From positions 2,062-66,061 of the forward strand of contig JAIRRP010000052.1 in NCBI GenBank assembly GCA_031255915.1: a DNA stretch of 64,000 nt, read 5' to 3'. This stretch comes from Puniceicoccales bacterium (GTDB taxonomy: Bacteria > Verrucomicrobiota > Verrucomicrobiia > Opitutales > JAIRLG01). The position numbers and the translations under genes were made by a program. The notes under the pieces were generated by a model. That model was not told the origin of the DNA and searched no databases. It saw only the letters and a program-made list of their open reading frames with translations. Shown one piece after another: positions 14,560 through 63,162 of this stretch (its first letter is position 1; each line of letters opens with the position of its first letter).

Positions 14560-14758
14560 GATGAGCTCGTGTCCGCAAGGAGGTAGCGAAGAACCGGCCT
14601 ATCCGGATGGATTATCGTCACCTCTTTTCAAAGCTACAAAAGCTGACACCATTTTAAAGCATCGAAGGAGAAATATCTTAAGCTAGAGTTCATGGACTAG
14701 ATTTTTCTTGCGTCTACGGAGAAAATTCACAGAATAGAATTCCTAGTTTAGGGAAGGT

Positions 14759-35042: not shown

Positions 35043-35573
35043 GTGAAGTATCAAATTATGAAAATAAAAAAGATTCTAAATCCAGCGTGGATAAAGCATG
35101 TTCCCAAGCCGTGGATATTATCATTGGCTACGCTGGGCCCCGTAGGCAATAAACTTTTTGCGCCGGGGACATGGGCCTCCTTTGCCGGTCTATGGTTCTA
35201 TACGTTCTGTTTTTACGGTCTATCGCCACTGAGTTTTCTCTGTCTGGCCATTCTTAGTTCTTATCTTGCGGGAGTTATCTGCCATGCAGCCGAACATAAC
35301 CTACAGGAGAAAGATCCCGATTGCATTGTCCTGGATGAATTCACCGCCATGCCAATCTGCTTCTTTGGGTTTCATGTACGGCCAGAGACACATGCATTGT
35401 GGGTTTTTCTTCTCACAGGGTTCCTGTTATTCCGCTACTTCGACATCTGGAAACCATTGGGTATCTACAAGCTACAGGACCTGCGAGGTGGCCTCGGTAT
35501 TATGCTAGATGACCTAGCTGCTGCTCTGGCGACCAATGTGGTGTTGCATGGTATTTTCCACTTTCTTTGCTAG
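35043..35573 (+). CDS. pgpA: phosphatidylglycerophosphatase A
   Basis: LGPVGNKLFAPGTWASFAGL, LDEFTAMPI, FDIWKPLGI and GLGIMLDDLAAAL. The start is uncertain (GTG 35043 or ATG 35058). Confidence 0.85.
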   Translation: MKYQIMKIKKILNPAWIKHVPKPWILSLATLGPVGNKLFAPGTWASFAGLWFYTFCFYGLSPLSFLCLAILSSYLAGVICHAAEHNLQEKDPDCIVLDEFTAMPICFFGFHVRPETHALWVFLLTGFLLFRYFDIWKPLGIYKLQDLRGGLGIMLDDLAAALATNVVLHGIFHFLC

Positions 35574-35610
35574 GAGTAATTTTACGATTTCAAGCGATTG
35601 GTTATATGCT

Positions 35611-35709
35611 TACCGCCTTTGAACCTTCGGTTCTGACTCGCTACGCGAGCCGCGGAAAGGAAAAATGAAAGCTCCCGCTTTGCATTTTTCCTTGGCCGCA
35701 AAGGCGGTA
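35611..35709 (+). repeat. GC-rich cloverleaf-like repeat, copy R1
   Basis: taccgcctttg-gaaccttcggttc-...ctcgctacgcgag...-ggaaaaatgaaagctcccgctttgcatttttcc-...caaaggcggta. Lies between the convergent pgpA and the 582-aa gene. Confidence 0.85.
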
Positions 35710-35850
35710 AAGCGAATGCCCGGGACCAGGGCAATTTCAACCGGCTACACCTAAAGGGAATCACCACACAGGACAAATAGTGAGACAATCCCCCCCACTA
35801 CTCTGCCAGGAGTCTTTTGAATTTCCGACCCATGTGGTCAGTACCTCACC

Positions 35851-40069: not shown

Positions 40070-40231
40070 ATCCTCCCTAAAATCTTTAGGCTTTAGGCTA
40101 GAATTTTCAAGGAAATAAGAAGGTATAACAGGGGATGCGGCGCGACGGTTTTTTGACAAAGGCTTCGTCACTATTTTGTTGGCCCGGAGAAGGAAATGGA
40201 TGATCCTGACCTTGGGGTGCTCTGCTGGCCT

Positions 40232-40332
40232 GGCCGCCTTTGCGGCGAGGAAAAAATGTAAAGCGGGAGCTTTCATTTTTTCTTGCCGCGGCCCGCATAG
40301 CGGGCCAGAGCCCGAAGGGCTCAAAGGCGGCC
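40232..40332 (-). repeat. GC-rich cloverleaf-like repeat, copy R2 (inverted orientation)
   Basis: ggccgcctttgcggcgaggaaaaaatgtaaagcgggagctttcattttttcttgccgcggcccgcatagcgggccagagcccgaagggctcaaaggcggcc. Its reverse complement is collinear with R4/R5. Confidence 0.85.
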
Positions 40333-40522
40333 AGCCCGACCGATCGACCGGAGACGCTGCCCAGATAATCGCACAAATGCCCATGCGCCTAACGCGAATA
40401 ACCCCAGCCCATCGGAGACGCTTGCCTAGACGCAGGCTCCATTCGCCCGAAGAAAATAATACCACTCCATAAAGTTCATTTACGCCGGTATTTTCTTCCC
40501 CATATTCCCAGAGGTTTACATC

Positions 40523-41427: not shown

Positions 41428-43545
41428 ATGGAAATGCGAGCACCTAGGAGAAGAGTCGTCAAAATGTATCGGGCATATCTTCCCCATTTATTAGCATGGA
41501 CACTACGGTGTTGGGTTGCCCTTTATCCGCAGGCCACGGATGCCGCCGAGGGTATTTACGGCTTTTCCCTTCACGACTTACTCTCTTCCCAAACCACCGA
41601 CCATTCTCCTTATGCCGCGAACCCTCGTCGGGCGTGGACAATGCCCTTCAATGCCCTCATGGTGGCCGCCTGCGCGTACTCCTCCTCTTCTCCATACACC
41701 ACCTCAGGGTATGGCCCACAGGCATCCGTTTTCCCCTTTTTATCAGAAAGGGAAATCTTTGCCCACCACTCACGAACCATTTTACAGCTGCTCACCAAGC
41801 TCTTCTACTTCGAAGAGCATCCCATCCTCAATAAAGAGCAGAAGGAAAAAGCGCGCATCCTGGCATCAAGGGAATGTGTGCCCAACCATCGCGATGTGCT
41901 GCATGACCTGAAGGCAACATTGGCCACTTGGCTGACACTCTATCGCGGACGAAGATTGAGGTGGCAGCACAACACGACACCGCTTTCCAAAGCCTTTCAG
42001 TGGGCCCTTTGGCGTACCTGTCCTTCGGCTGACCCACGGGCCTTTATTCCCCTGGAAGAATGGTATATTCGCATCCACAGCCTGCGGCAAGCACTGTCTC
42101 GCCATCTTTCATCACCATTACACCCCATAGGCAATACTTCCTCTTCCATCTCACCGCCTATACCTCCCCTAACCGCCAAGGGAAAGTATCATCAAATTCT
42201 GCAAGGGCTCGACGACCTTGGAAATGAATGGATTCTCAAGCCATTTCACTTCCAGGAGCATGTCGGAGGTTGCCTCTGCAGCGGTGTATTGCCGCATCTC
42301 TCTCATCTTATCGGCCGCAACGTCATGAGCTATCGCCTGGGAGAATGGATCTGTCCCGGAATGGTCGTCGAAACATACCCATGCCTCATCCCAAATTTTA
42401 CAGCCGAGACCTCTCATCTCAAGACTTTTTCCCTGGGCATATGCATGAGGAAGGCGCGAGGAATTCCCTTCACTTATTATTGGAAACCAAGAACAGAGCA
42501 GGACCATAAGTGCGCAAAACTGGATCAAGAGAGGGACATCGTTCTCTACATATTAAGCCAACTTGTGGCGGGAAAGCGTCCCGACGAGCCGCTGGAATCG
42601 CTTCGGAAAAGCGACGAACTCAACACCCTCTTCGCCTCGGATGGTGCCGAATTACAAGGCGCTCTGGCACAGTGGCAATCCCTCTCTTCCGTGATAAAAA
42701 CTCTTTTTTTCGATGCCTGGAAACGTTACGAAGCGGAAGTAAATCAACTTCACCAGCGGCTCTCTCCGGGTACTCTGGTCCGCAACATCACGCGGATGCA
42801 ATGGCTCGATGCGCTCCTGCTACAGGGCGATCGGCATCATCATAATTTTTATGTCGCCATCGACGAAAATCCCTATGCGATCCAGTTGATCGACAATGAC
42901 CAGTGCCTGGGTCCACTCCACCCAAAATCGCATTATACTGCATTTCCCGCAAAGATTTTTGAAGAGCAGATGGGCGTATCACTCGATGACTACTTCCGCA
43001 ATCGAGGGCCGACCATTGCTGAATTATGGGCCCACCATGGAGGAAAATCCGTCGCTCCTCTTCCGCAAATCATCGACGAAACCACGGCTAAAAATTTTGA
43101 GCATTGTTCTTCAGAAATAGCAGCATCGCTGGCCGATGGTTGGCTGCTACCGGAAGAAATTTCCGCCCTACAGCACCGTCTACAGGCCATCCAAGCATTT
43201 ATAGCACTATTGAGAACTCGCCATCGCGTCATTCCTGAAGACCCCTCTCTTTGGGAAAATTCGTCCATCACCGCCCTCTTGCAATTCCATGATCCGGAGA
43301 TATACGATCCCTTGTGGCCCGAGACTATGTACATTCGAAATTCCTCCGAGAAAACCCAGAGCAATCCCATTCGCGTCCTGACGCTCTACCAGAAACTCTG
43401 CCGAGAAAAAGACCGGGAGCAGAATACGTACCACCAACTGAGAGCCTGTGTCGATGTTCTGCCAAAGTCCGTAATGCCCGAAAAAGCCTCTCCAAAGGAA
43501 TCCTCTTCGGCTTCATCCTCTGTTTCGGCCGGGCGCCGCCTTTGA
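41428..43545 (+). CDS. hypothetical protein with kinase-like catalytic loop (PI3/PI4-kinase type GDRHxxN ... IDND)
   Basis: 705 aa. LLLQGDRHHHNFYVAIDENPYAIQLIDNDQCLG spans residues 463-495 (42814..42912). A candidate ATP-Lys lies in NEWILKPFHF. The last 3 codons and the stop are supplied by repeat R3. Confidence 0.6.
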   Translation: MEMRAPRRRVVKMYRAYLPHLLAWTLRCWVALYPQATDAAEGIYGFSLHDLLSSQTTDHSPYAANPRRAWTMPFNALMVAACAYSSSSPYTTSGYGPQASVFPFLSEREIFAHHSRTILQLLTKLFYFEEHPILNKEQKEKARILASRECVPNHRDVLHDLKATLATWLTLYRGRRLRWQHNTTPLSKAFQWALWRTCPSADPRAFIPLEEWYIRIHSLRQALSRHLSSPLHPIGNTSSSISPPIPPLTAKGKYHQILQGLDDLGNEWILKPFHFQEHVGGCLCSGVLPHLSHLIGRNVMSYRLGEWICPGMVVETYPCLIPNFTAETSHLKTFSLGICMRKARGIPFTYYWKPRTEQDHKCAKLDQERDIVLYILSQLVAGKRPDEPLESLRKSDELNTLFASDGAELQGALAQWQSLSSVIKTLFFDAWKRYEAEVNQLHQRLSPGTLVRNITRMQWLDALLLQGDRHHHNFYVAIDENPYAIQLIDNDQCLGPLHPKSHYTAFPAKIFEEQMGVSLDDYFRNRGPTIAELWAHHGGKSVAPLPQIIDETTAKNFEHCSSEIAASLADGWLLPEEISALQHRLQAIQAFIALLRTRHRVIPEDPSLWENSSITALLQFHDPEIYDPLWPETMYIRNSSEKTQSNPIRVLTLYQKLCREKDREQNTYHQLRACVDVLPKSVMPEKASPKESSSASSSVSAGRRL

Positions 43546-43634
43546 GCCCAAAGGGCTCTTGCCCGCTATGCGGGCCGTGGTAGGGAAAAATGCAAAGCGG
43601 GAGCTTTCATCTTTCCCTACCACAAAGGCGGCGC
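43533..43634 (+). repeat. GC-rich cloverleaf-like repeat, copy R3 (apex of the long hairpin inverted)
   Basis: The arms are collinear with R5, but the central 15-mer reads caaagcgggagcttt, the exact reverse complement of aaagctcccgctttg in R1/R4/R5. Confidence 0.85.
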
Positions 43635-43754
43635 GCCGGATCCTCCCGAGCGCGAGAGCGAGAAAATGCGCGAAAAAAACACAGGAGGTATGAAAAAGCT
43701 AATCTTGACGGAGACATTCGAGATGGTTACCTCTTCAGATCCATAAGGACTTGT

Positions 43755-45746: not shown

Positions 45747-46275
45747 GGTATTTTTTTAATTGTGTGGCCTCGCGGTACGTAAAACGAAGTATTTTCGCCA
45801 TCGCTATCGCTATTGACGCAACGGGAATATTTCACTCCTTTTCTTTTCTCATGCGTCTGTGCCGCTTCTTTATCCTATACCTGTCCTGTCCATTCTGCCT
45901 TTTCGGGAGTAGAAACCGCCCTTATCGTCATCACGAGTGCGCATTTGATCATCGATACATTTCCATCAGTCCTACGATCAGTGATGGACTCGTGGGTATT
46001 TTGCGTTGCGATACCTCATGGACTTCCCGTTCGCATCGAGTTCTCCATTATTGGCTCTCGGATAGCCATGGGAATTTCATCATGGGGCTGGATTTCAGTT
46101 CCTTCCATATGCCGCGAGGAGGACTGGGTTTATGGCTGGACCAGCGCGTCCATATTCGTGGGAAGAAGATCGATGGGAAATCCCATCCGGCATTCCTGCG
46201 CGTGGATTTTATCCAAAGAGAGGAGAATCCTGACCATTCTCGTGAGGCACCAACCTTTTCCGCCGAACAGGGGGT

Positions 46276-47322
46276 ATGCAAGCATCCTTCCAAAACGTCG
46301 CCATTCAGGCATTAGCGCATGTTCTTCCTTCGGAAATATGGACATCCGAAGCCATCGAGGAAGAATTGCGTGAGACCTACCAACGGCTTCATCTCTCTCA
46401 GGGCAGGCTGGAGCTCATGACGGGTATCCGTGAGCGTCGGTTGTGGGGCCCCGGGACGCTCGCTTCGCGAGCAGCGGCTTTAGCCGCACAAGCCCTCTTC
46501 GAGGGCTGTCCCGGGGCCCCCGCAGAAACGGTCGACCTGTTGATCCATAGCTCCGTCTGCCGGGATCGTCTGGAACCCGCTACCGCTTCCTACGTCCATC
46601 ATCTCCTGTCCCTGCCGACCCATACCCAGGTCTTCGACGTCTCCAATGCCTGTCTCGGATTCCTGAATGCCATGTGGATAGCGGCCAGTCAAATCGAATC
46701 CGGCATGATCCGATCGGCCCTCATCGTCGCGGGAGAAAATAGCCGACCTCTTCTGGAATCCACTCTTCAGGCCCTGCGGGATACCTCCCTTGACCGCCAA
46801 CGCCTCAAGCCCTATTTCGCCAATTTCACCATTGGTTCCGGCTCCGTCGCCATGCTCCTTACCCATCGTCCTATCGCACCTCATGCCCCGCGCTTTATCG
46901 GGGGCTCGATCATGGCCCATACCCACGCTTGCCACCTCTGCGAAGGAGGCATAAGCGATGGCATGTGGCATATGCAGACGGACTCTGAGGCACTGCTCCG
47001 AGCGGGTATTGCCCTCGCGCACGACAATTGGCGGCAATTTCTTCGACAGACGCGTTGGGATACCTCCCAGATACAGCATTTCATCTGCCATCAGGTCGGG
47101 AGACGTCATCAGTCGCAATTTTACGATGCCCTCGGATTGGAGGTGCAGAAAGATTTTTCCACATTTCCCTTCCTGGGCAATACGGGCTCCGTCGCCTTAC
47201 CCATTACCCTTTCCATCGCGCAAGAGCAACGGCGCTTCCAACCGGGTGATCGCGTAGCGCTTCTGGGTATCGGCAGTGGACTTCACTCCATGATACTAGG
47301 TGTGGAATTTCCAGAGGAATAA
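46276..47322 (+). CDS. KAS III (FabH)-family condensing enzyme
   Basis: Cys-His-Asn triad contexts DVSNACLGF, FICHQVGRRH and LGNTGSVALP. 348 aa with GGGGG upstream of the ATG. Confidence 0.75.
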   Translation: MQASFQNVAIQALAHVLPSEIWTSEAIEEELRETYQRLHLSQGRLELMTGIRERRLWGPGTLASRAAALAAQALFEGCPGAPAETVDLLIHSSVCRDRLEPATASYVHHLLSLPTHTQVFDVSNACLGFLNAMWIAASQIESGMIRSALIVAGENSRPLLESTLQALRDTSLDRQRLKPYFANFTIGSGSVAMLLTHRPIAPHAPRFIGGSIMAHTHACHLCEGGISDGMWHMQTDSEALLRAGIALAHDNWRQFLRQTRWDTSQIQHFICHQVGRRHQSQFYDALGLEVQKDFSTFPFLGNTGSVALPITLSIAQEQRRFQPGDRVALLGIGSGLHSMILGVEFPEE

Positions 47323-47499
47323 GTTCTTGAGGGATTCAACGCGTCCCATTGTTTTTGAACCAAGGCTGTGGAAATCCATGCCTATCGCCCGAGTGAAAAT
47401 TCGTGCCCTTCGGTACCGAAAGATACCTGGAGGGCTTTCTGTTTTCCGGGAATACCGATGAGACGATCCCAAGGATGCCTTTCCTTCTGTCCCCTCGCG

Positions 47500-47580
47500 C
47501 CCCGGGATGTTCGCTTTGCGAACGAGCGGCTACGCCGCTCAAGCCCTCTTCGAGGGCTATCCCGGGGCGCGACCGAAACC
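47500..47580 (+). pseudogene. ~80-bp relic of a KAS III-like gene
   Basis: ccccgggatgttcgctttgcgaacgagcggctacgccgctcaagccctcttcgagggctatcccggggc parallels 46450..46530 of the intact gene (AAQALFEGYPGA vs AAQALFEGCPGA). Confidence 0.6.
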
Positions 47581-48036: not shown

Positions 48037-50376
48037 TTACTGAGTAACTCTGTCTGGACTTACAACCTCACTCCAGGTTTCCCGGAATGCTTCTCCGAGC
48101 AGAGGAGTTATTCCTCGATCTTGATTTTGGGCCTGACCCTGATTACATAGGGCATCATTCCACACCCACCAATCGATATCTAACATCTCCAACTGGGTAT
48201 CTATCTCTATCTGCTGCTCTTCCGTTAAATTCCGATTTTGTCTTTTTTCTAATAAATGGTTCATCGCCGCCACCTTCAGCTCCCGCAACTTCGCATAAGC
48301 CTCCCCCTCCTTATAAGTCCCCCACTCAGCAAGATCCTCTCCCTCAGCAGAAAACCATTGCCAATTAAAAAGATCACTCTTTTCTGCCATATCAACATAT
48401 TGACAGGTAAAATGGTCTTTGCAATTCCAACCGACGATTTCCTCTGTATAAGTATTATCTACACTATTATGTACAATATCATATACAGGGTTAGACTCAT
48501 CATACGGAATTATATAAGGAATTTCACCCTGCACACGCCAGAACCTGAAATTTGGATTACCAAACTTATGATAATTCGGTTCATAAGTATAATAAATTTT
48601 ATCGAAATACGCATGGTTTAGGATTGTCAAAAATGCTCTGTAATGATCATTTTTCTGAATATCAGGATAAACTTTAGCTAAATACCTCAGCTCTAGGAGA
48701 CGAGTACCGGCTAAATTTAGACAAGACGAGGGCAGAGGTTGTTGCGGTGAATTTTCCTCTCCGGAGAATTCCATACCGAAGGTTTCATCACCCTCCAATT
48801 TTCTTTGAAGCACGACAAAATGCATCTCCACTCCCTGCGGATGTATCAAAAAGAAGCAAACGCTTTGCGGAGACCCATCCTTCAAGCGATCCAGCAAATC
48901 CGGCGTTAAGGCATACCACTCACAGGCATCTTTTGCCTCTTGAAGATTATTCAGACTATTTTCAGGAACCACATTCCTCAATAGAGGGACACCTATTCCG
49001 GATATAGCCGGAAAGTTTCGGCATAAAAGACCAGCCTTCTGGTCATAATATCGGTTCCAGCCATCGGGTGTAGCCAAAATGACCGCCACGGGGATCTGCT
49101 GCCCAATAGGAGCCGATAGAGGCAACGAAAGCCCTTGTATGCTATTGTCGTCGTATTTCAATATGAAAAACTGGAGCGTTATCCGCGATAATGGCAGCCC
49201 AAGACGATTCGCTAAAACTGAACAGTCCCATCCTCCAAGAGACGAGGGATCTGGCAAAATGTCTAACACATTTTTACCCGTAAAAAACCTGTTCCGCATG
49301 CCAGGAAGTTCATTCCAAAAGACCCTCTCCCTGGCTAGTTCTTCACGAAATCTCTCTAAACTGATGCCAGCCACATGAAGAGACATCGTTGTGTTGTTAA
49401 AATCTTTAAAAGATGGATTTTTTCCAAAAGTCTCTTGCATTTTTATTTCCGCCTTTCCCAGTGAATTCCAACCATTTCCTAGTTTTCCATACAACGAGAG
49501 CATCGTGCAATTTTTCACCAAAGGATGTTCCGGAACTGGCGCCGGCTGTGTCACTACTGGTCGTGGCTGATTTACCGGTTGTGATGGCGGCAAATTTGGG
49601 AGGCTCACAGGTGGCTGTGATGTCGGTTGTTGCGCCACTGGTGAAGATATAGGAATTATCCTACCGTCGAGCGCTTGCCGGTAATTTGCAGGCACTACAC
49701 TACTTATTTGATTCGAAAGATTTCCCTGTTTTCCACGCATAAAAATGTACTTTATCTGACCTAAAACGACATAGACCTGCATAAAAAATTGTTCATTCTC
49801 ACGATGTGAGACAATAAATGGCTTCTCTGTGGAAATATTATTGATTAAAATATTAAAATCTTGCTCTCCATTCCCCGTGATTTTGTGTTGGCCCTGCGTT
49901 ACTGAGGAGTCATAAAACACCCAAGTTTCGCTGCTGTTAGAACTTTCTGTAACGCTCAATTTAAAGTTCAATGTACGGGTTGGTTGGGTTCGGGTATCTC
50001 CTGATCCTAAATAGAGCATCCTATAGACCACCGACACATTTTGAAGAGGGTAATTGCTCTTCACCGTCTGACGCGCTCTAGCTATCTGTGGCAAGATTTC
50101 CTTTTTATTTATTTTTTCCAATATGCCCTGCATAATATTTCCAGCTTGATACTGAGAACTTTCATTGAATATCGCACCATAGTCTGGAAATTGCATCCAT
50201 AATTTATTATTGTCGTAGTCACCAATTCCGTCATCGCGGGTATTTTCATCGTAAGGCACCCACTGATTACCTTGCTTTATGGACACCGTCACCTTGCCCG
50301 CCGACATCGAGGAAACTCCCATCACACAACAGACGCCCGCAAGCGCCCACAAACGAATATATTTTTGTAATAACAT
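48037..50376 (-). CDS. large secreted hypothetical protein (779 aa)
   Basis: Signal peptide MLLQKYIRLWALAGVCCVMGVSSMSAGK and a central Pro/Gln tract AQQPTSQPPVSLPNLPPSQPVNQPRPVVTQPAPVPEHP. Visibly A+T-rich, adjacent to the tRNA pair, with no recognisable motif. Confidence 0.65.
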   Translation of the reverse strand: MLLQKYIRLWALAGVCCVMGVSSMSAGKVTVSIKQGNQWVPYDENTRDDGIGDYDNNKLWMQFPDYGAIFNESSQYQAGNIMQGILEKINKKEILPQIARARQTVKSNYPLQNVSVVYRMLYLGSGDTRTQPTRTLNFKLSVTESSNSSETWVFYDSSVTQGQHKITGNGEQDFNILINNISTEKPFIVSHRENEQFFMQVYVVLGQIKYIFMRGKQGNLSNQISSVVPANYRQALDGRIIPISSPVAQQPTSQPPVSLPNLPPSQPVNQPRPVVTQPAPVPEHPLVKNCTMLSLYGKLGNGWNSLGKAEIKMQETFGKNPSFKDFNNTTMSLHVAGISLERFREELARERVFWNELPGMRNRFFTGKNVLDILPDPSSLGGWDCSVLANRLGLPLSRITLQFFILKYDDNSIQGLSLPLSAPIGQQIPVAVILATPDGWNRYYDQKAGLLCRNFPAISGIGVPLLRNVVPENSLNNLQEAKDACEWYALTPDLLDRLKDGSPQSVCFFLIHPQGVEMHFVVLQRKLEGDETFGMEFSGEENSPQQPLPSSCLNLAGTRLLELRYLAKVYPDIQKNDHYRAFLTILNHAYFDKIYYTYEPNYHKFGNPNFRFWRVQGEIPYIIPYDESNPVYDIVHNSVDNTYTEEIVGWNCKDHFTCQYVDMAEKSDLFNWQWFSAEGEDLAEWGTYKEGEAYAKLRELKVAAMNHLLEKRQNRNLTEEQQIEIDTQLEMLDIDWWVWNDALCNQGQAQNQDRGITPLLGEAFRETWSEVVSPDRVTQ

Positions 50377-54362: not shown

Positions 54363-54503
54363 CTAGAGGGTGCCATCAAAAATAAAAGATTGATAAAGGA
54401 AAAAGAAGGAATGGAAAAGAGGACACACAAGAGACTTGTTTCTGCATTCCACATTCCCTCTATCTCTCTTTTTGTTGCCTGATTTTGATGACACCCTCCA
54501 GAG
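54363..54503. repeat. AT-rich palindromic MITE-like repeat, copy E
   Basis: ctagagggtgccatcaaaaataaaagattgataaaggaaaaagaaggaatggaaaagagg...cttgtttctgcattccacattccctc...ttgcctgattttgatgacaccctccagag, with ~20-bp terminal inverted repeats. Confidence 0.85.
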
Positions 54504-56122: not shown

Positions 56123-57646
56123 TCAGGCGTTTGTCTCTCCTGATGCAATCCTCGCTTTTTCAATCCGGACGCTTAATTTTTTGACAGAGAATAACCAAAT
56201 ACTGCAAATGCAGATAAAGATACCAAAGACATAGGGCGCAATGGTAAAGTAGGTAGCACCTGATATCAGCGCCAACATAGCCGCCTGAATCCAGGCACCT
56301 CCCGCTTTACCCAGGCGGCCACCCACGACATCCACAACCGCTTTCCCCTTTACCTTCATCTCCTCACTAAGCGGAATATAGGCCATCTCCTTCGTCAGAT
56401 CAAAAAGCGCATATTTCGTCGATTTCGCAATCGTTAAAATGACGGTACCCAAAAGAACAGCTGCCACCAATGGGGTTATACCCACGGTGCCCAAAAGGCC
56501 CGAAAGGTTCTCCTTAAAGAGGACAAATATGAAGAATAAACCTCCCAAAAGGAGCGTGATGGCCGGTGTAATAGCCGCGGCCGTGAACCAGCGGAAAGCG
56601 CGCAGTACATTCCCTCCGACAATCATCATGATGATGGAACAAATGCCGGTCCAAAAGGTGTAGCGGCTCATATAGGCATTGTACGCATTCGGATTGGTAC
56701 AATACTGCCCCAACTGCTTCTTCCAAAGCCCTTCCATCAGGTTAATACTAATGCCGTAACATACGATTAAAGAGGCAATGAGGAGTAGGTAAGGTGACAT
56801 GAAGATATCCTTCAAACTTTGCCAAAAGGGTGCTTTTTTCTTCTTCTTGGAGACGCCTGGCAACTCCGGCTTGTCGTAAAAACGCTTATCGGGTAGCACA
56901 TAGGCATAGATCCAACGATAGATGAGCATTGTCGATATCCCTGAAAACACAACCATACCCATGAGCCAATTCAGGGAAATCTGCCATGGATCCATCCCAG
57001 CGGCCGATGTATCGGTCATTACGGAAAATTTTTCCCCTAACCATCCGGAGAATAGCAACGCCACCTGGGCCATAAGCCCAAAAAAGGCGTACACACGCTT
57101 CGCCTCTGATGTCTTCGTGACCTGATTGGCGAATTGCCAAAAGGAGAGGGATAAAATGGCACTGCCCCAAATTTCAGCGAGGATATAGAAGAGTGCATAG
57201 GACCAAATGCCGACGATGGCCAGTGGCCATCTCAAAAATTCCGGTGCGGCCGCTTGCCATGCATGTACCGTCTCTACGGAGGGATGCAGTAGGCTTAAAT
57301 TAGGGTAAATGAGGAACGCGAAAGCCCCAAAAAAAGCGATAAACGGCGTGAGCGTGGCGTAGAACAACTTCTCGTTACTCAAAATATCACTCGCTTTCGC
57401 GTACAAAAGCATGAAAATGACCGCCGATGGCATGACGCAAAAGCCCTTCAGGAAGGGAATGACCTCCGCATCGGAGCCCGGTCCCGTGACCACGAGAGCA
57501 TCTTTGATATTCCTCAGGCAGGAATAATTGAATAAGATGAAAAAGAAAATCAAACTCATCGGAATAACCTTCTTCAACTCGTAAGCATGGATGGGGAAGA
57601 AAACCTTACGCCATTTACCGAACTCTGGCTGCATCACCTCAGACAT
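56123..57646 (-). CDS. tlcA: ATP/ADP translocase (TLC/NTT nucleotide transporter family)
   Basis: 507-aa multi-pass protein. FFPIHAYELKKVIPMSLIFFFILFNYSCLRNIKDALVV...AEVIPFLK...ILAEIWGSAILSLSFWQFANQVTKTSEAKRVYAFFG parallels chlamydial Npt1 / rickettsial Tlc almost motif for motif (from memory). Confidence 0.88.
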   Translation of the reverse strand: MSEVMQPEFGKWRKVFFPIHAYELKKVIPMSLIFFFILFNYSCLRNIKDALVVTGPGSDAEVIPFLKGFCVMPSAVIFMLLYAKASDILSNEKLFYATLTPFIAFFGAFAFLIYPNLSLLHPSVETVHAWQAAAPEFLRWPLAIVGIWSYALFYILAEIWGSAILSLSFWQFANQVTKTSEAKRVYAFFGLMAQVALLFSGWLGEKFSVMTDTSAAGMDPWQISLNWLMGMVVFSGISTMLIYRWIYAYVLPDKRFYDKPELPGVSKKKKKAPFWQSLKDIFMSPYLLLIASLIVCYGISINLMEGLWKKQLGQYCTNPNAYNAYMSRYTFWTGICSIIMMIVGGNVLRAFRWFTAAAITPAITLLLGGLFFIFVLFKENLSGLLGTVGITPLVAAVLLGTVILTIAKSTKYALFDLTKEMAYIPLSEEMKVKGKAVVDVVGGRLGKAGGAWIQAAMLALISGATYFTIAPYVFGIFICICSIWLFSVKKLSVRIEKARIASGETNA

Positions 57647-57779
57647 AATTATTTAACCTCTCCTTTGAGGGAACTTCGAAATCACTTCAGAATGAGTTTC
57701 CTCAAAAGAAGCAAGCTTTTTCACTTTCCAACGCTTGAAATTGCAATTTTCCTAGGGCTGCGTCCTGGCCTTCGATGGG

Positions 57780-57883
57780 CTCACCGCCTTTGAGCCCTTC
57801 GGGCTCTTGCCCGCTGTGCAGGCTGCGGGAAGGAAAAATGAAAGCTCCCGCTTTGCATTTTTTCTTACCGCAAAGGCGGTGAG
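57780..57883 (+). repeat. GC-rich cloverleaf-like repeat, copy R4
   Basis: ctcaccgcctttgagcccttcgggctcttgcccgctgtgcaggctgcgggaaggaaaaatgaaagctcccgctttgcattttttcttaccgcaaaggcggtgag. Confidence 0.85.
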
Positions 57884-57927
57884 CCAGAACCAGAATCTTC
57901 CTCCATGCCCCGGCACATTCCAAAAAA

Positions 57928-58380
57928 TCATGTTACGTAAGGCATCAATACCTCCAACCATGCCCTAGGAGGCTTACAAACACCACCACCTTTTCGGACA
58001 AACGCATGGCGAGAACTCCCGTCAAAAAGCCTCTTGCCCTGGCGTTCGATGGCGTAGATAATCTCAACGCGCGAACGCGGTAGCTCCTGAATTTCAGCCC
58101 ATACGGACAGGTCGTCATCAAAATACGCCGAAGCGCGGTACTTGGCCTGCAGCTCCACCACCGGCAGATAAAATCCTTCCACCTCGATCCTCTTGTAGGG
58201 ATAACCCATGACATCCATCAATGCTACACGAGCCACCTCACACCATACCCAGTAATGCGCATGATGCACGACGCCCATAACATCGGTCTCGGCGTAGCGA
58301 ACACGGATATCTACTTTATTTCTAATCATGATATGAGAAATCATATCATCCGCACACCCAAATAAATCAAGCCATTTCAC
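57928..58380 (-). CDS. ybgC: acyl-CoA thioesterase, YbgC/4HBT hotdog family
   Basis: IRVRYAETDVMGVVHHAHYWVWCEVARVALM is the family N-terminal motif. The start is uncertain (58380, 58344 or 58329). Confidence 0.8.
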   Translation of the reverse strand: MKWLDLFGCADDMISHIMIRNKVDIRVRYAETDVMGVVHHAHYWVWCEVARVALMDVMGYPYKRIEVEGFYLPVVELQAKYRASAYFDDDLSVWAEIQELPRSRVEIIYAIERQGKRLFDGSSRHAFVRKGGGVCKPPRAWLEVLMPYVT

Positions 58381-59205: not shown

Positions 59206-59898
59206 TTAAAATAATTTTTGCACCGCCTCTTTTGCAGCTGCCTCCTGGGCACGTTTTTTGGAATGTGAGCTCGCATGCCCATACAATTTTCCCTCTAGCC
59301 ACAGCTCGATTTCAAAAACTTTTTGCAATCCTTCTCCCTCTTCTTTCACCAGGCGATAATCGACGCTCCAGGCCGGCGTCTGGCTTTGGGCATATTCCTG
59401 AATTCTCCCCTTGGGATTATATTCCTGTATCGCTAGCTCCACATGAGACTTGATGTCGCCAAACCAGGCCAACACGACCCGCTTCGTCGCTTTGAATCCC
59501 GCTTCGAGAAAAATAGCCCCCACCAGTGCCTCCAGGACGTCCTCCAGAACAGAAGGCCCCATCGGCCCCCCGGAGGCCTGAGTGCTGAAGCGGATCCATG
59601 GGCGAATGTCCAGGCTTTCCGCCAATTTCGCTAAAAATTTCCCATTTACCAAAGAACTCTTGTAGGTGGTGAGTTCCCCTTCCGGCATATTAGGGAACAG
59701 TTGAAAAAGCGTTTCCGTCAGGATCGCTGATAGAATGGCATCGCCCAAAAATTCCAAGCGCTCATAATTTTCCTGTGTCGAGAACGACGGGTGCGTCAGG
59801 GCTTTTTCGAGAAGTTGCTGCGATTTAAAGCGGTACCCTAACGTCTGTTTTAGGGCCTTTCTACTCGGCGACTGCCTCTGGCCGAAGAAAATATTCAT
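59206..59898 (-). CDS. rnc: ribonuclease III
   Basis: Signature NYERLEFLGDAIL and a C-terminal dsRBD (KGRIQEYAQ ... SSHSKKRAQEAAAKEAVQKL). The start at 59898 forms an ATGA overlap with the upstream GT8 stop. The listed longer ORF overlaps that gene. Confidence 0.9.
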   Translation of the reverse strand: MNIFFGQRQSPSRKALKQTLGYRFKSQQLLEKALTHPSFSTQENYERLEFLGDAILSAILTETLFQLFPNMPEGELTTYKSSLVNGKFLAKLAESLDIRPWIRFSTQASGGPMGPSVLEDVLEALVGAIFLEAGFKATKRVVLAWFGDIKSHVELAIQEYNPKGRIQEYAQSQTPAWSVDYRLVKEEGEGLQKVFEIELWLEGKLYGHASSHSKKRAQEAAAKEAVQKLF

Positions 59899-60887
59899 GA
59901 TTTTTGCGATGAGAATAGGCGTTTTATGGGATTTCGCAGAGCCCTGCGCAGAAACCTCTCGATGAAGGACAACCTGTGCAGTATCGACTGGCATTTCATG
60001 GGCTTTATCTGTTGAGCGGTGTCCTGTAAACGCTTTAAATCCTCCGCAAAGGGTGTGCGGGCACATGTTTCCCAGAAAAGATGCGTCAGATAGTAGCACC
60101 CAAAACGTCGTGGAAGTTGCAGGGGCCCTTGCCCGTTAAAGCATTTTATTTCCAGGGCTTCTGAAAATGATTTCCAGGGCTTTTGATAAATGAAATGAAC
60201 GATTTTCGGCTCCTCTTCACGACCGGGGTAAAAATTTCTATAGTCAAATTTGTTCCAGTCGGGAGCCAATGGGTAATAATTCCCATCGATGATGATGTTC
60301 AATGCATCCTGTTCTGGAAAATCAAATGGCCCTCTCGCTTGAATAAGCCTTATGAGGCTTGCCGTAATTCCTTTATCCCTCCATCGATTCAGATCGATGA
60401 GCAGGACGCCCACATTAAAATAATCCGCTGATTTATGCCGCCTCAATCGGCGATTATGTGCCTTCACCGGTGCAAAGCCTTTTTCAGACCTCGCTGCAAA
60501 GGCGTGTGGCTTGATACCCAGATGATAGAGAGATTCCCATTCACCTAAAACCAGCGTATCGCTGTCGAGATAGAGCACCCGCGAAGCTTGGGGTAAAATT
60601 TCTGCCAAAAAAATACGGGCATATACTTCGTGATGCGGATATTTTTCCGTTACGGGAAGTTCCCAGATGACCTTTGGAAGAGGAGGAAAATGGAGCTGTA
60701 GGGCAGAGAAATTTTCTTGCAGCTGCTGTAACTTCTGTCGGGATGTGGCCGAAAGTTTGCCGCTTAGGATATGCACATGGACGGGTGCCGTGCCATGATA
60801 ATGTTCCATCAATGACCAAAGCGCCACGGCAGTGAATTGGACGTAGGTATCATTACAGGCAAAGGCAATGTGAATCGTGCTTTCCAT
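59895..60887 (-). CDS. glycosyltransferase family 8 (LPS/lipooligosaccharide-type)
   Basis: IHIAFACNDTYVQFTAVALWSL, VLYLDSDTLV (DxD) and YFNVGVLLIDLNRWR. Confidence 0.82.
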   Translation of the reverse strand: MESTIHIAFACNDTYVQFTAVALWSLMEHYHGTAPVHVHILSGKLSATSRQKLQQLQENFSALQLHFPPLPKVIWELPVTEKYPHHEVYARIFLAEILPQASRVLYLDSDTLVLGEWESLYHLGIKPHAFAARSEKGFAPVKAHNRRLRRHKSADYFNVGVLLIDLNRWRDKGITASLIRLIQARGPFDFPEQDALNIIIDGNYYPLAPDWNKFDYRNFYPGREEEPKIVHFIYQKPWKSFSEALEIKCFNGQGPLQLPRRFGCYYLTHLFWETCARTPFAEDLKRLQDTAQQIKPMKCQSILHRLSFIERFLRRALRNPIKRLFSSQKS

Positions 60888-60962: not shown

Positions 60963-61113
60963 TTAGAAAATGTCGTCAAATAAAAGATTGATAAAGGGAG
61001 AAAAAGAAGGAGAGAGAAGGAATAAAAAAAAGGACACATAGGAAACTTGTTTCTGCATTCCACATCCACTCCATCTCTCTTTTGGTTGCTTGATTTTGAT
61101 GATACCCTCTAGG
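60963..61113. repeat. AT-rich palindromic MITE-like repeat, copy F
   Basis: ttagaaaatgtcgtcaaataaaagattgataaagggag...cttgtttctgcattccacatccactcc...gcttgattttgatgataccctctagg. Confidence 0.85.
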
Positions 61114-61156
61114 TTCCGGAAGGTCTCTAGGGCGTCTCAGGTCGATGGGGCGGGTT

Positions 61157-61256
61157 TGCCGCCTTTGAGCCCAAAGGGCTCTGGCCCGCTGCGCGGGCCG
61201 CGGGAAGGAAAAATGAAAGCTCCCGCTTTGCATTTTTCCTTACCGCAAAGGCGGCA
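61157..61256 (+). repeat. GC-rich cloverleaf-like repeat, copy R5 (best-preserved copy)
   Basis: The outer stem tgccgcctttg/caaaggcggca encloses three hairpins: gagccc-aaa-gggctc, ggcccgc-tgc-gcgggcc and aaggaaaaatg-aaagc-tccc-gcttt-g-catttttcctt. Confidence 0.9.
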
Positions 61257-61294
61257 GGCCGAATCCTCCCGAGCTTGGGAGTTTTGTCTTTGTC

Positions 61295-61443
61295 CTAAAA
61301 GGTGTTGTCCAAAAAGGTCGACAAAGGGAAAAAGAGAGAAGAAAGATGGAATGGAAAAAAGGACATATAGGAGACTTGTTTCTGCATTCCACATTCGCTC
61401 ACTCTCTCTTTTGGTTCCCTGATTTTGACGACACTCTCTAAGG
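61295..61443. repeat. AT-rich palindromic MITE-like repeat, copy G
   Basis: ctaaaaggtgttgtccaaaaaggtcgacaaagggaaaaagagag...cttgtttctgcattccacattcgctc...ccctgattttgacgacactctctaagg. The recJ stop and last codon lie in its right end. Confidence 0.85.
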
Positions 61444-63162
61444 AGAAGAATGTTTCCAATCGATGAGTTCGAGGCGGATGGAACGTCGGCACTGCCAATA
61501 TTCCCAGGATACTTTGATGGCCAAATCAAGTGGACAGTGGATGGGAGGAATGTGCCGAATACCGTTCCAATAGATGCATGAGAAGGAAGGATTGAGACCA
61601 TCTGCGATAAAAAGCCGAATATGTTTTTTATCTTTTCCGAAAATTTCGGCTTCTTCCGTAAGCGTAATTTGGTTCAATGCAAAGATAGGTTCCGGATTAT
61701 CCTGTCCATAAGGCTGTAATTTTTCAAGATCTGTGAGGAAATGATCATCGATTTCATCCAGCGAAATAGCTTTGGAAATCAAAAGTTCACAGCTATTTTT
61801 ATCGAGATTCTGTTGGCATGTAAGTACAGCCTCTTGAAATGTTTTTTGGAGCAGCGGGACATTTTCCAGCTTCAAAGAAATGCCGACGGCCATGGGATGA
61901 CCTCCCCAAGATTCCAATAAATGCGCGCAGGGCGTTAATATCTTTACGAGGTCATAGCCGGCTACACTTCGACCAGAGCCTTTTGCCAACCCGCGCTCCT
62001 CGCCAAGAACGATGCAGGGACGTTGGTAATCACGGGAAAATTTTCCACAGACGATGCCGACGATACCGGAATGCCAAGCGGGATTGAAGAAAAAGATCCC
62101 CGGCAGATGTTCCATGGTCTTGAATTTTTCCTCCGCTTCTGCAATGATCGCCCGCTCGATCTTCTGACGCTCGGTATTCATTTCGTCGAGACTTTGGGCG
62201 AGAATCGAAGCTTCCTGCCTGTCTTCCGAAAGAAGCATCTGCACGGGAACAACGGCATCGGCCAGTCGACCACTGGCATTGATGCGAGGTCCCAATCGAA
62301 AGGAAATGTCCTCAGGAAGAACGGGTTGTTCCGCAGGTATTTGTGTGATGCGGCAAAGCGCATCGATACCGGTTCGTCGTGTTTGAGAAAAATGCCGTAG
62401 CCCGAAATGGGCTAGGATGCGGTTTTCACCGGCCAATGAGACGAGGTCGGCGATGGTTCCCATCGCGACGAGATCGAGTTCTTGCCGTAGATGAAAGTTA
62501 AATGCGCGAGGATCTTCTTTTTTTCGAAAATATTTCAAAAATGCGTGGATGAGTTTGAACATTAATCCAGCGGTGCAGAGGTAACGCCATGGAGGATTCT
62601 GTTCGGTATCGAAAACATGGGGATTGATTAAAATGCAATCTTTTGGGAGCTCGTTGTTGGATTGATGATGATCGATAATTAAAACTTGGATACCAAGAGT
62701 CCTCAGCTTCTGGATTTGGGTGACGGCATTCGTACCGCAGTCAAGGGCTATGACCAACCGAGGAGGTGAGTGCTGAAGCATGCGATCGACGATTTCAGAG
62801 GACATGCCATAACCTTCCGTGAAGCGCCTGGGGATAAAGTATTGCGGTTGAAGTCCGAAATATCGGAGTAGACGGACGAGTAATGTCGTACTCGTAATGC
62901 CATCTACATCGTAATCGCCGATAATGCTGATAGCCCATTGCTCATGAACAGCTTTCTCCAAAAGCTCGATCGCTTCATGCATGTGCGTAATGGCAAAGGG
63001 ATCTTGAAGATGCGCCAGTTTGGGATGTAGAAATGCCTCTGCCGCTTGTGAAGTTTTTATGCCCCTGGAGACTAGGATATGGGCGATGGTGGGATGGATG
63101 CGTAACACATGGTAGAGATGTTCCACCGCTTCTTCATCAACTTCTAGCTGTCTCCATGTCAC
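61438..63162 (-). CDS. recJ: single-stranded-DNA-specific exonuclease RecJ
   Basis: DHH motifs IIGDYDVDGITST, LDCGT, VLIIDHH and GGHPMAVG. Confidence 0.9.
   Translation of the reverse strand: MTWRQLEVDEEAVEHLYHVLRIHPTIAHILVSRGIKTSQAAEAFLHPKLAHLQDPFAITHMHEAIELLEKAVHEQWAISIIGDYDVDGITSTTLLVRLLRYFGLQPQYFIPRRFTEGYGMSSEIVDRMLQHSPPRLVIALDCGTNAVTQIQKLRTLGIQVLIIDHHQSNNELPKDCILINPHVFDTEQNPPWRYLCTAGLMFKLIHAFLKYFRKKEDPRAFNFHLRQELDLVAMGTIADLVSLAGENRILAHFGLRHFSQTRRTGIDALCRITQIPAEQPVLPEDISFRLGPRINASGRLADAVVPVQMLLSEDRQEASILAQSLDEMNTERQKIERAIIAEAEEKFKTMEHLPGIFFFNPAWHSGIVGIVCGKFSRDYQRPCIVLGEERGLAKGSGRSVAGYDLVKILTPCAHLLESWGGHPMAVGISLKLENVPLLQKTFQEAVLTCQQNLDKNSCELLISKAISLDEIDDHFLTDLEKLQPYGQDNPEPIFALNQITLTEEAEIFGKDKKHIRLFIADGLNPSFSCIYWNGIRHIPPIHCPLDLAIKVSWEYWQCRRSIRLELIDWKHSSP

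Follow-up and report, generated by a model that had tools for sequence, protein, structure and literature searches.

The 64-kb window (the whole stretch of DNA that was analysed) contains five dispersed copies of a palindromic repeat of about 105 nt, family A, either polarity of which folds as a single strand into a four-way junction. Family A is a real, previously uncatalogued repeat of the kind that includes REPs, MITEs and Rickettsia palindromic elements (RPEs), and it belongs with neither the classical MITEs nor the REPs. We consider it probable, with considerable reservation, that its copies are short non-coding palindromic interspersed DNA repeats, selfish or formerly selfish, and kin in kind to REP/REPIN, MITE, RPE and mitochondrial GC clusters.

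A search of the whole window with filters off returned exactly five copies and no sixth, and all five lie where the earlier note had placed them (35611..35709, 40232..40332 in inverted orientation, 43533..43634, 57780..57883 and 61157..61256; its R1 to R5, here W1 to W5). The borders used from here on are those of the covariance model, and the bit scores are those of model R1. Copy W1 (35607..35713, + strand; 96.7 bits; fold -55 kcal/mol, z -7.3) is the most divergent of the five and lacks the 5' arm described below; it is flanked by two convergent genes, pgpA (35043-35573, +) and a 582-aa ORF (35851-37599, -). Copy W2 (40228..40336, - strand; 114.3 bits; fold -77.6 kcal/mol, z -8.9) is apparently covered by an 870-aa ORF, the real start of which is almost certainly downstream, at about 40066, because a signal-peptide-like sequence beginning MVKKK is found there. 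That start would place W2 between two divergent gene starts, those of the secretin gene (about 40066, -) and a 5'-3' exonuclease gene (40523, +), and not at a 3' end. Copy W3 (43530..43637, + strand; 97.5 bits; fold -80.8 kcal/mol, z -9.8) overlaps the final 16 nt of a 705-aa ORF (41428-43545), lies upstream of rpmI-rplT-pheS, and has the central 15 bp of its third hairpin inverted. Both remaining copies are antisense to the two genes around them: W4 (57778..57885, + strand; 115.4 bits; fold -67.9 kcal/mol, z -8.4) lies between a thioesterase gene (57928-58380, -) and a TLC ATP/ADP transporter gene (56123-57646, -), and W5 (61153..61260, + strand; 118.9 bits; fold -77.6 kcal/mol, z -7.7), the copy singled out in the earlier note, is flanked by recJ (61438-63162, -) and a family-8 glycosyltransferase gene (59895-60887, -). 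Synteny breaks at W5, where duplications flank the copy. The 118-nt direct repeats on its two sides were considered as a giant target duplication and rejected as a general feature, the other window copies having no flanking repeats.

Copies are spread unevenly, with none in the first 35 kb of the window and five in the next 26 kb. The larger ORFs called in the window, about 50 of 56, are housekeeping genes or have no Pfam match. With the copies found in related genomes, family A comes to 29 copies, all of which were classed as intergenic. Of the earlier description of the copies as intergenic or at gene 3' ends, in both orientations, the intergenic position holds, and a 3'-end position does not apply to W2. 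When gene context was scored for the first 22 copies and for the one in contig L135, 6-7 copies in same-strand spacers were found to be sense and 8 antisense, with four further copies between convergent genes and three (W2, L006a and L012) between divergent ones.

The minimum-energy fold of each window copy consists of an outer stem of 10-14 bp around three hairpins with 0-5 unpaired bases at the junction, i.e., the very four-way junction that had been proposed from inspection. Fold energies range from -55 to -81 kcal/mol, with z-scores of -7.3 to -9.8 against dinucleotide shuffles, and none of 200 shuffles folds as well. The complementary strand folds equally well, as do the copies under DNA parameters. 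Across the copies the outer stem measures 10-17 bp and is up to 100% complementary, and the three hairpins, each of a different sequence, are nested within this one stem in a fixed order. Distant copies (L141, L139, L011b and L135) keep the junction with hairpins 1 and 3 that are wholly different in sequence, 14-20 bp long and near-perfect. A small core is conserved even in these, namely CTTTG / CAAAG at the junction and the GCCCGC-NNN-GCGGGC of hairpin 2. Hairpin 3 is hypervariable. In W3 its central 15 bp are the exact reverse complement of those in the other window copies, and the same segment is inverted between its 9-bp arms in 4 of the 29 copies, turning the loop from UCCC into GGGA.

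An additional conserved and largely unpaired arm of 25-30 nt is present on the 5' side of the fold in about half of the copies (12-13 of the first 22 examined), always in the same orientation relative to the fold and with a consensus of roughly GAACAnCGTCTCC..CYGGCG. Within the window, flank alignments place it clearly at W4 (57751..57777, +; cctagggctgcgtcctggccttcgatg) and W5 (61127..61152, +; ctagggcgtctcaggtcgatggggcg) and, together with the sequence itself, at W2 (40337..40364, -; ctgggcagcgtctccggtcgatcggtcg), and it is weak at W3. Arm-bearing copies are longer than the borders first assigned to them, which are too narrow there. The left flanks of the copies hold either this arm or nothing obvious in common. 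In about half of the copies the arm carries a CGTC motif, about 20 nt upstream of the outer stem; no -10-like box was found in the arm, and that of W5 is able to form a weak additional hairpin (CGUCUCA/UGGGGCG). Near W2 the sequence holds a second, solitary arm-like motif (about 40404-40431, -, with a core of GCGTCTCC at 40414-40426), which lies about 65 nt further 5' of the W2 arm on the - strand, i.e., at higher + strand coordinates. The idea that the arm is a separate abundant repeat was rejected, as loose matches to its motif number 73 versus 47 expected; none of the 73 adjoins an element except the extra site at 40414-40426.

The substitutions between window copies that had been read as pairing-preserving were all recovered: hairpin 1 is GAACC/GGTTC and hairpin 2 CTCGC/GCGAG in W1, and the base outside CCGCC is paired A:T in W1 and W4 and G:C in W2, W3 and W5. 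Extending the comparison to all 29 copies, with alignments (A6 and A8) that were fitted to the model and so lean towards the structure, 95.4% of pair cells are paired versus 38-57% when the partners are slid, compensatory double changes occur at 38 of 44 pairs versus 17.4 +/- 2.4 in shuffles, and compensated-change cells number 171 versus 33.9 +/- 5.3, statistics that are compatible with selection on the fold and with arm-to-arm conversion alike. A model-free alignment gave a similar covariation result. The structural constraint on a dispersed repeat that the earlier note had suspected is therefore borne out by strong covariation. Among 985 pair cells, 927 (94%) are Watson-Crick, 13 are G:T and 18 are A:C. 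Under RNA-level selection on a single strand, such a predominance of Watson-Crick pairs and such similar numbers of G:T and A:C would be unusual. The covariation expected of structured non-coding RNAs is present and their strand-specific signature, an excess of G:U over A:C and a fixed orientation, is absent; because the pattern is strand-symmetric, covariation does not discriminate RNA from DNA.

The 24 further full copies all come from related uncultured Puniceicoccales genomes, and exact-pattern scans matched the element in Puniceicoccales MAGs only. The window itself belongs to a 67-kb contig of a Puniceicoccales MAG. The host is a clade of uncultured Puniceicoccales (Verrucomicrobiota), probably intracellular. 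No match to the element was found in plasmid and phage collections. In a collection of metagenome contigs, which evidently does not include these organisms (other JGI samples, reached via proteins, contain them), the pattern of the hairpin-3 tip had no match, and the outer-stem pattern matched at least 120 loci, all of them, among the matches listed, chance matches with a model score of at most 21.6 bits. The element was seen in independent NCBI, JGI and Logan assemblies.

Occupied sites differ between relatives, scored as presence or absence only and not by exact insertion borders, the related spacers being too diverged to align. The spacer between the Mur-ligase and ATP-synthase genes is filled in bin136 (L002) and empty in the window. 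A second bin136 contig, L139, is syntenic to 40.5-50 kb of the window, lacks family A at the sites of W2 and W3, and carries copies after pheS and before a 791-aa gene, where the window is empty at both. Downstream of recJ, L133 and L134 have an empty site, and L135 carries a copy in the opposite orientation. Copies at non-orthologous sites are 0.88-0.91 identical between genomes with 75-77% identical coding DNA and unalignable spacers, and nearest-neighbour copies interleave between genomes. All copies differ from one another in sequence, which gives no indication of very recent bursts. Most spacers hold no element. The spacer between the 705-aa gene and rpmI holds a four-way-junction element in every genome examined (family A in two, family C in two others), a constant occupancy that could reflect function rather than a hot spot.

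Besides family A, the clade contains at least two more sequence families built on this four-way architecture, hence at least three in all. Model matches at 46444-46521 in the window, at 8778-8853 in L139 and at 7542-7619 in L141 were suspected of being in-gene false positives, a suspicion that was rejected: they are real four-way palindromes of a second family, B. One family-B copy lies in frame inside an OleA-like gene and was considered as an RPE-like in-frame insertion, which was also rejected, as the OleA-like protein is no longer than its homologues. The architecture is rare in shuffled sequence (0-1 per 64 kb). When scanned for loosely, four-way junctions also turn up in unrelated contigs, at about 1 per 20 kb, a real background that makes a cut on energy density necessary, and 714 kb of such contigs held only three structures of comparable energy density. 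Contig L141 carries 8 elements in 9.7 kb. Neither these families, at least three of which share the architecture, nor the inversion of the hairpin tip and the 5' arm had been seen in the earlier note.

Searches for a described family agree with its statement that none was recognised. Rfam 15, run on the whole window at the gathering threshold, returned only three tRNAs and the SRP RNA and nothing on the element; at an E-value threshold the best sub-threshold match to W5 was TLS-PK3, with 22.8 bits against a threshold of 80. The tRNA model did not match the element, and full-text literature searches found no description of it. The further suggestion of a REP/BIME- or MITE-like element stands as far as a dispersed palindromic repeat under pairing constraint is concerned, and fails on the features that define a REP, a BIME and a classical MITE. 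The outer stem does provide the terminal inverted repeats of a classical MITE. However, a comparison of all k-mers (k = 3-6) over all offset pairs in the sequence flanking the 29 copies yielded no target-site duplication, the best flank-offset scores being equal to a null obtained by re-pairing left and right flanks, and family A is therefore not a classical MITE. By definition a REP is one stem-loop of 20-40 bp whose stem is directly adjoined by an unpaired GTAG or CGTC tag (PMC3733652). As family A has no such single stem-loop with an adjacent tag, and no RAYT was seen in the window, it is neither a REP nor a BIME; the alternating mosaic of REPs with defined linkers that makes up a BIME is replaced by three unlike hairpins nested in a fixed order. 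Following the suggestion to look for a RAYT/TnpA-REP or other cognate transposase, we found no transposase, RAYT, TnpA or other candidate mobilising gene in the 64-kb window. Family A does share with IS200/IS605-type (PATE-like) derivatives the lack of a target duplication and the presence of subterminal hairpins. The in-frame, peptide-adding insertion that characterises an RPE was not seen, all 29 family-A copies being intergenic and the genic family-B copy adding no length.

Mobile DNA is favoured over a strand-specific RNA because occupied sites differ between relatives, copies are about 90% identical where coding DNA is about 76% identical, orientation is unbiased, G:T is about as frequent as A:C, and hairpin tips invert. 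Under this explanation, new copies would arise from folded single-strand DNA, or through copying or conversion with another copy as the source. A trans-supplied enzyme would read the shape of the junction together with the small conserved core (CTTTG / CAAAG and GCCCGC-NNN-GCGGGC) and would leave no target-site duplication, like HUH/Y1 enzymes of the IS200/IS605 or RAYT type. If such a junction-reading enzyme copies the folded strand, the fold would be what selection preserves, probably along with arm-to-arm templated repair. Effects on transcripts in either orientation, for instance cutting of the long perfect hairpin by RNase III or a block to 3' exonucleases, would then be a by-product. The high identity of copies between genomes could equally result from purifying selection for a host function, which speaks against selfish DNA. 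A bolder variant, to which we give a rather low probability, is that the four-way junction itself, and not its sequence, is recognised and propagated. Family A would then belong to a structure-defined class of mobile DNA that mimics a Holliday junction or cloverleaf, comprises at least three sequence families, and can overwrite coding sequence, or arise from it, with protein length unchanged. Its copying would be the work of a junction-specific enzyme, or of the junction-processing and repair machinery of the host, instead of a conventional transposase.

The most serious competitor, although unlikely, is a cis-acting structured RNA module in host transcripts, i.e., a processing or punctuation signal, a stabiliser of mRNA 3' ends or a factor-independent barrier to transcription. 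A cloverleaf would form whichever strand is transcribed, and its long hairpin could serve as an RNase III site or its tRNA-like shape as an RNase P/Z site. This reading would account for the great stability of the fold as RNA on both strands and for the strong covariation; in addition, the copies with examined context are found in transcribed intergenic spacers, rpmI-rplT-pheS is preceded in every genome examined by a spacer that family A or C occupies, RNase III is encoded nearby (59206-60099), and bcr1 is a precedent for a dispersed repeat acting at the RNA level (PMC3184786). However, G:U is not favoured over A:C, the pair cells are overwhelmingly Watson-Crick, copies also occur between divergent promoters, a T run follows the element in W5 only, there behind a separate downstream hairpin, and neither Rfam nor the tRNA model matches. 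Moreover, most spacers are empty and the occupied ones differ between close relatives, so no particular operon depends on the element. The family of small structured RNAs offered as an alternative in the earlier note is likewise disfavoured by the strand-symmetric fold, the mismatch counts, the unbiased orientation and the differing sites. In the form of independently transcribed small RNA genes, with the 5' arm as promoter and the cloverleaf as mature RNA, it is decidedly improbable: a conserved sequence does lie upstream of the fold in a constant orientation, and a terminator-like hairpin (CTCCCGAGCTTGGGAG TTTT) does follow W5, but that terminator-like sequence occurs at one copy only, about half of the copies lack the arm entirely, the arm has no -10-like box, and no sigma-70-like promoter was found around W5. 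Also against such RNA genes stand the hypervariable hairpin 3, whose tip inverts and whose loop changes from UCCC to GGGA, the sites that are not conserved between relatives and the strand-symmetric mismatch pattern.

The strand symmetry and near-perfect Watson-Crick pairing are compatible with a DNA-level host site, at which a nucleoid, topoisomerase or recombination protein would bind a cruciform, four-way junction or duplex and which would be kept because it serves chromosome organisation or repair. BIMEs, for instance, bind gyrase and IHF. The small sequence core that even distant copies keep, at the junction and in hairpin 2, and the position of W5 at a synteny break with flanking duplications, also point this way. 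Nevertheless, we regard such a role as improbable given the uneven spread of copies in the window, the turnover of sites between relatives and the lack of an identified candidate protein; the sharing of architecture only among unrelated sequence families makes a sequence-specific binding protein unlikely. Least credible by far are the readings that make the element what is left of an ordinary insertion sequence, or its end, or an artefact of assembly or chance. The outer stem does resemble a pair of terminal inverted repeats, but its ends are always about 80 nt apart, and neither solitary ends nor solitary hairpin-2 units occur outside elements in the 207 kb inspected. There the element is thus not the end of a longer ordinary IS, the outcome that the earlier note had named as fatal to its proposal, and no transposase is adjacent. 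An artefact is countered by the independent assemblies and by fold z-scores and covariation far beyond chance.

Small palindromic repeats are common in bacteria, yet in most families neither their movement nor the conservation of their folds has been explained. Family A could help here, as its unusually elaborate fold is kept while arm sequences are wholly replaced. As the design recurs in several sequence families of a single clade, shape and sequence can be told apart here more cleanly than in REPs or MITEs, and the search for a structure-specific mobilising enzyme gains a concrete target. In some contigs, such as L141, several percent of the DNA may consist of these elements. Such abundance, the risk of their being miscalled as ORFs and the location of one of them at a synteny break make them relevant to the annotation and assembly of these symbiont genomes. 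If they affect transcripts, RNA processing in a reduced genome would have a further layer that spans the genome and is independent of orientation.

Several known systems resemble family A in part. RPEs are about 100-150 bp long, occur as several families per genome in an obligate intracellular lineage, and lie in frame in protein genes, adding 30-50 residues to the proteins. Like them, the elements described here are palindromic, of similar size and of several families, with family B likewise in frame in the OleA-like gene. Unlike them, family A is purely intergenic in its 29 copies, and the OleA-like protein gains no residues from its family-B element; a relationship in sequence to RPEs was not found. 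The inverted terminal repeat of parvoviruses such as AAV is a T-shaped hairpin with flip and flop forms, in which folded single-stranded DNA is read by an HUH endonuclease. As an analogy, it shares with family A an outer palindrome around small internal ones, adjacent unpaired unique sequence and an internal part that occurs in two inverted configurations. In contrast, it forms a three-way junction at the ends of a linear viral genome, whereas family A is four-way, inverts a single hairpin tip, and has no Rep gene and no viral context.

REPs and REPINs with their RAYTs (PMC3733652, PMC3116915) are also short GC-rich intergenic palindromic repeats in many copies and both orientations, without target-site duplication, in which the hairpin and not the sequence is the conserved feature and recognition is presumed to be of single-strand DNA. 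The CGTC motif in the 5' arm of about half of the family-A copies is a further likeness. However, a REP is a single stem-loop with its tag immediately next to an 8-13-bp stem, and a REPIN is two such units inverted, whereas family A has four helices at a junction over about 105 nt, with CGTC about 20 nt from the outer stem and in some copies only. Bacterial MITEs such as Correia/NEMIS, RUP, bcr1 and Coxiella QMITE1/2 (PMC3184786, PMC5896051, PMC10969869) share terminal inverted repeats, a non-coding nature, a size of 100-400 bp, polymorphic insertion sites, a stable fold and a frequent occurrence in host-restricted bacteria, and bcr1 also shows compensatory changes. Classical MITEs differ in having short direct target repeats (TA, 2-5 bp, etc.) and a recognisable parent IS, neither of which was found for family A in the flanks of the 29 copies and the 207 kb inspected, and in forming one long hairpin instead of a perfect four-way junction. 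Finally, the mitochondrial GC clusters and double-hairpin elements of fungi (PMC4478555, and Paquin et al. 2000 as cited in it) are tiny GC-rich palindromic mobile elements that encode no enzyme. They occur in reduced endosymbiont-derived genomes, with constrained secondary structure, strain-to-strain turnover of sites and exchange between genomes, and their palindromes merge and shuffle into more complex folds. They are 30-90 nt long, with one or two hairpins in AT-rich organelle DNA, whereas family A resides in a bacterial host of 48% G+C and keeps a fixed fold of three hairpins plus a stem.

The five family-A copies of the window (W1-W5, with W5 at 61153-61260 on the + strand) can be aligned across about 108 nt with a mean column identity of 78%. 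As the earlier note had counted five copies, so the family covariance model recovered exactly these in the window, at 97-119 bits; their opposite strands scored merely 26-39 bits, and no sixth member was found in the whole window with the search filters off. The outer stem enclosing three hairpins that had been proposed from the sequence is the minimum-energy structure of all five: an outer stem of 10-14 bp, hairpin 1 (GAGCCC-NNN-GGGCTC), hairpin 2 ((G)GCCCGC-NNN-GCGGGC(C)) and a long hairpin 3 with a bulge, meeting in a junction with only 0-5 unpaired bases. Fold energies are -55 to -81 kcal/mol (z -7.3 to -9.8), which none of 200 shuffles equalled, and the fold is equally stable for the complementary strand and under DNA parameters.

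Every compensatory change listed in the earlier note was found in the alignment, and the structural constraint it proposed is borne out by covariation. With MAFFT and no structure information, 90.9% of pair cells were paired and double changes occurred in 19 pairs (7.6 +/- 1.7 in shuffles). When 29 family-A copies were fitted to the model, an alignment that is biased towards the model and whose copies share descent, 95.4% of cells were paired (79.9% in shuffles), double changes occurred in 38 of 44 pairs (17.4 +/- 2.4) and 171 cells were compensated (33.9 +/- 5.3), values attained by 0 of 500 shuffles. Sliding the 3' partners by 1-3 columns lowered pairing to 38-57%. Given these slid controls and the exchange of whole arms for other sequence, it is safe despite both caveats to conclude that pairing, not sequence, is maintained in family A.

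Constant in all copies are CTTTG / CAAAG adjoining the junction (three pairs invariant or nearly so), hairpin 2 as GCCCGC-NNN-GCGGGC (three invariant pairs) and the two CC/GG pairs of hairpin 1. The four outermost pairs of the outer stem vary (A:T, G:C, C:G), hairpin 1 occurs as GAGCCC, GAACCC, AAGCCC, GCTCCC, GATTCC or GGTCCC with a matching partner each time, and hairpin 3, the most variable part, is a near-perfect 14-20 bp of wholly different sequence in L141, L139 and L011 (loci from related Puniceicoccales). In W3, L004, L005 and the L139 copy at 10856, the middle of hairpin 3 (15 bp, AAAGCTCCCGCTTTG) is replaced by its exact reverse complement between 9-bp arms GGAAAAATG / CATTTTTCC, with the bulge switching side and the loop going from UCCC to GGGA, a minute inversion of the type expected from recombination or template switching inside a DNA hairpin. 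A conserved 25-30-nt 5' arm (consensus roughly GAACAnCGTCTCC-(about 9 nt)-CYGGCG) precedes the outer stem in 12-13 of the first 22 copies, the rest beginning directly at that stem. Folding leaves the arm mostly unpaired or as a weak hairpin, and its proximal part, GGCTGGCGGGTT, is discernible even in the distant L141 copies. Because it lies on the hairpin-1 side without exception, it is part of the element.

The window (G+C 47.8%) contains housekeeping genes, and one of its proteins is 100% identical to a protein encoded on a 67,204-bp contig from a Puniceicoccales MAG. It also has a TLC ATP/ADP transporter gene (56123-57646; Pfam E 6e-173), a marker of intracellular life, whose presence suggests an energy parasite or an intracellular symbiont. 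Eight large ORFs (558-779 aa) at 10211-16435, 19997-24541, 35851-37599, 41428-43545 and 48037-50376 have no Pfam match and encode lineage-specific proteins, possibly tied to the host-associated lifestyle; the 705-aa one among them has homologues in this clade only. An exact-pattern scan with the hairpin-3 tip across 185,579 species-representative genomes returned 12 sites, all from two Puniceicoccales MAGs of one sample (11 in bin136, GCA_031279255.1, and one in bin38), and further relatives' contigs were found in JGI and Logan assemblies via homologues of RecJ and of the 705-aa protein. The model identifies 29 full family-A copies from five genomes (the window genome, bin136, bin38, L135 and L141), with decayed or partial copies in three more contigs (L136, L137, L138). 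Family A is restricted to this one clade; nothing was found in plasmid or phage collections, nor among at least 120 metagenome loci having outer-stem words only. It matches no Rfam 15 family and is not described anywhere that full-text literature searches reached, in agreement with the earlier note, which did not recognise it as a described family.

Within the clade, sites turn over. Coding DNA of the window and bin136 shares 75-77% nucleotide identity and the spacers are unalignable; the family-A copies are 0.88-0.91 identical, a conservation above background. Nearest neighbours interleave across genomes (W5 with L010 and L003, W4 with L007a and L002), and the genes flanking similar window and bin136 copies differ, L002 alone being syntenic with the window. 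The Mur ligase / ATP synthase spacer is empty in the window and filled in bin136 (L002), as are the spacers after pheS and before a 791-aa gene (both filled in L139 of bin136), and the W2 and W3 sites lack a family-A copy in L139. A decayed L138 copy stands at the W3 position, possibly one ancient common site. Downstream of recJ, the site is filled antisense to recJ in the window, filled in the sense direction in L135 and empty in L133 and L134. W5 occupies a rearrangement junction, since the gene after recJ is an amine oxidase gene in relatives and a glycosyltransferase gene in the window. Around it lies a 118-nt direct repeat (60994-61111 and 61323-61440; 81% identity, 329 nt apart) containing recJ's last codons, and the recJ 3' end occurs a third time, in inverted orientation, at 60963-60980.

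Other small features lie nearby. Directly past W5, at 61266-61291 (+), is a terminator-like hairpin, CTCCCGAGCTTGGGAG, followed by TTTTGTCTTT, with both neighbouring genes on the - strand. The spacer after the ribonucleotide reductase gene holds a 19-nt inverted repeat (54363-54501; CTAGAGGGTGCCATCAAAA / TTTTGATGACACCCTCCAG, 101 nt apart), which may be another small repeat family and whose arm resembles the recJ-end motif TTTTGATGAYACCCTCTAG repeated around W5. ORFs running across GC-rich elements (61090-61422 (+) and 45813-46373 (+) in the window; 613-1215 and 4526-4813 in L141), some called genes in public annotation, are probably spurious.

Target-site duplications are absent at every offset in the flanks of the 29 copies. 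The earlier note had advised looking for a RAYT or other cognate transposase, and none turned up: no transposase domain is encoded by the larger ORFs called in the window (about 50 of 56). It had also allowed for the terminal part of a longer ordinary IS, against which argues the lack of solitary ends able to bound a longer element in the 207 kb inspected.

A broadened model gave a weak match at 47495-47572, between an OleA/FabH-like gene and two tRNA genes, which is a different element of the same four-way architecture, unrelated to family A in sequence. Its outer stem (CGCGCCCCGGGAT / ATCCCGGGGCGCG) encloses hairpins of 6-7 bp with triloops (GTTCGC-TTT-GCGAAC, GAGCGGC-TAC-GCCGCTC, AGCCCTC-TTC-GAGGGCT; -63 kcal/mol, z -8.4), and compensatory changes separate it from its homologue at L141 6571-6649. 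We then scanned for the architecture itself, folding 9-bp inverted repeats 35-130 nt apart and requiring at least three branches and at most six unpaired junction bases. The scan recovered every family-A copy, a family B (46445-46520 and 47495-47572 in the window; L139 8782; L141 6571 and 7547) and a family C whose outer stem is (G)CGATGGCCC / GGGCCATCGC (L004 6576-6670; L011 4709-4817; L139 5561-5648; L141 3569-3692 and 9529-9648). Another family-C element lies at L140 4144-4231. Six of the seven window matches reached -0.55 kcal/mol per nt, as did 3 of 35 in 714 kb of unrelated contigs; shuffled windows gave 0-1 matches, and L141 has eight four-way-junction elements within 9.7 kb. With three families recovered and few comparable structures in unrelated contigs, the architecture belongs to the repeat population of the clade and not to a single sequence family. 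The family-B palindrome also lies in frame within the OleA/FabH-like gene of three genomes (46445-46520, residues 57-82 of ORF 46276-47322; L139 8782-8849; L141 7547-7614), where it codes for WGPGTLASRAAALAAQALFEGCPG and leaves the protein no longer than solved OleA structures or homologues from outgroups. Within one genome, the genic and intergenic copies have lineage-specific bases in common; the element may derive from the gene, or the gene may have been converted by the element.

If selection acted on an RNA of one polarity, G:U pairs should be tolerated and A:C should not; among 985 pair cells we counted 927 Watson-Crick, 13 G:T and 18 A:C. Between same-strand genes 6-7 copies are sense and 8 antisense, hence without orientation bias; four others have convergent neighbours and three stand between divergent starts. 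Even where their sequence differs among copies within one genome, long arms are perfectly paired, which suggests that arm-to-arm templating acts besides selection. Together with the hairpin-3 tip inversion, these observations point to a strand-symmetric, DNA-like constraint. An RNA effect working in either orientation may be compatible with them, and the main rival reading, an orientation-independent RNA module used by the host, draws its best support from the spacer before rpmI, which is occupied in all genomes examined, albeit by different families (W3 in the window, family C in bin136 and the L141 genome); we consider it unlikely. The best-supported reading is that family A is selfish DNA, a non-autonomous palindromic repeat whose fold would be the feature recognised during copying. 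As no target duplication was seen, the repeat probably spreads either as folded single-stranded DNA processed by a trans-acting enzyme, for which we infer an HUH type, or by conversion templated on existing copies. The recognition or cleavage core would consist of the CTTTG / CAAAG junction, hairpin 2 and the arm that bears CGTC.

Between the REP/BIME- or MITE-like element and the small structured RNA family offered by the earlier note, the evidence favours the side of mobile DNA, while membership of the named classes is not borne out. Family A works like elements of the REP/REPIN, MITE, RPE and mitochondrial GC-cluster kinds, yet departs from the definition of each. It is not a classical MITE, since neither a target duplication nor a parent IS turned up in the material searched; nor is it a REP/BIME, REP being a tagged 20-40-bp stem-loop (PMC3733652), since it has no such stem-loop and no RAYT was seen in the window; nor an RPE, since it makes no length-adding insertions in genes. 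Another dispersed repeat with compensatory changes is bcr1 (PMC3184786), and for the GC clusters of yeast mitochondria small palindromes have been described to merge into more complex folds (PMC4478555). What is unusual here is a fixed four-way-junction design common to several families, in which the arm sequences are completely replaceable.
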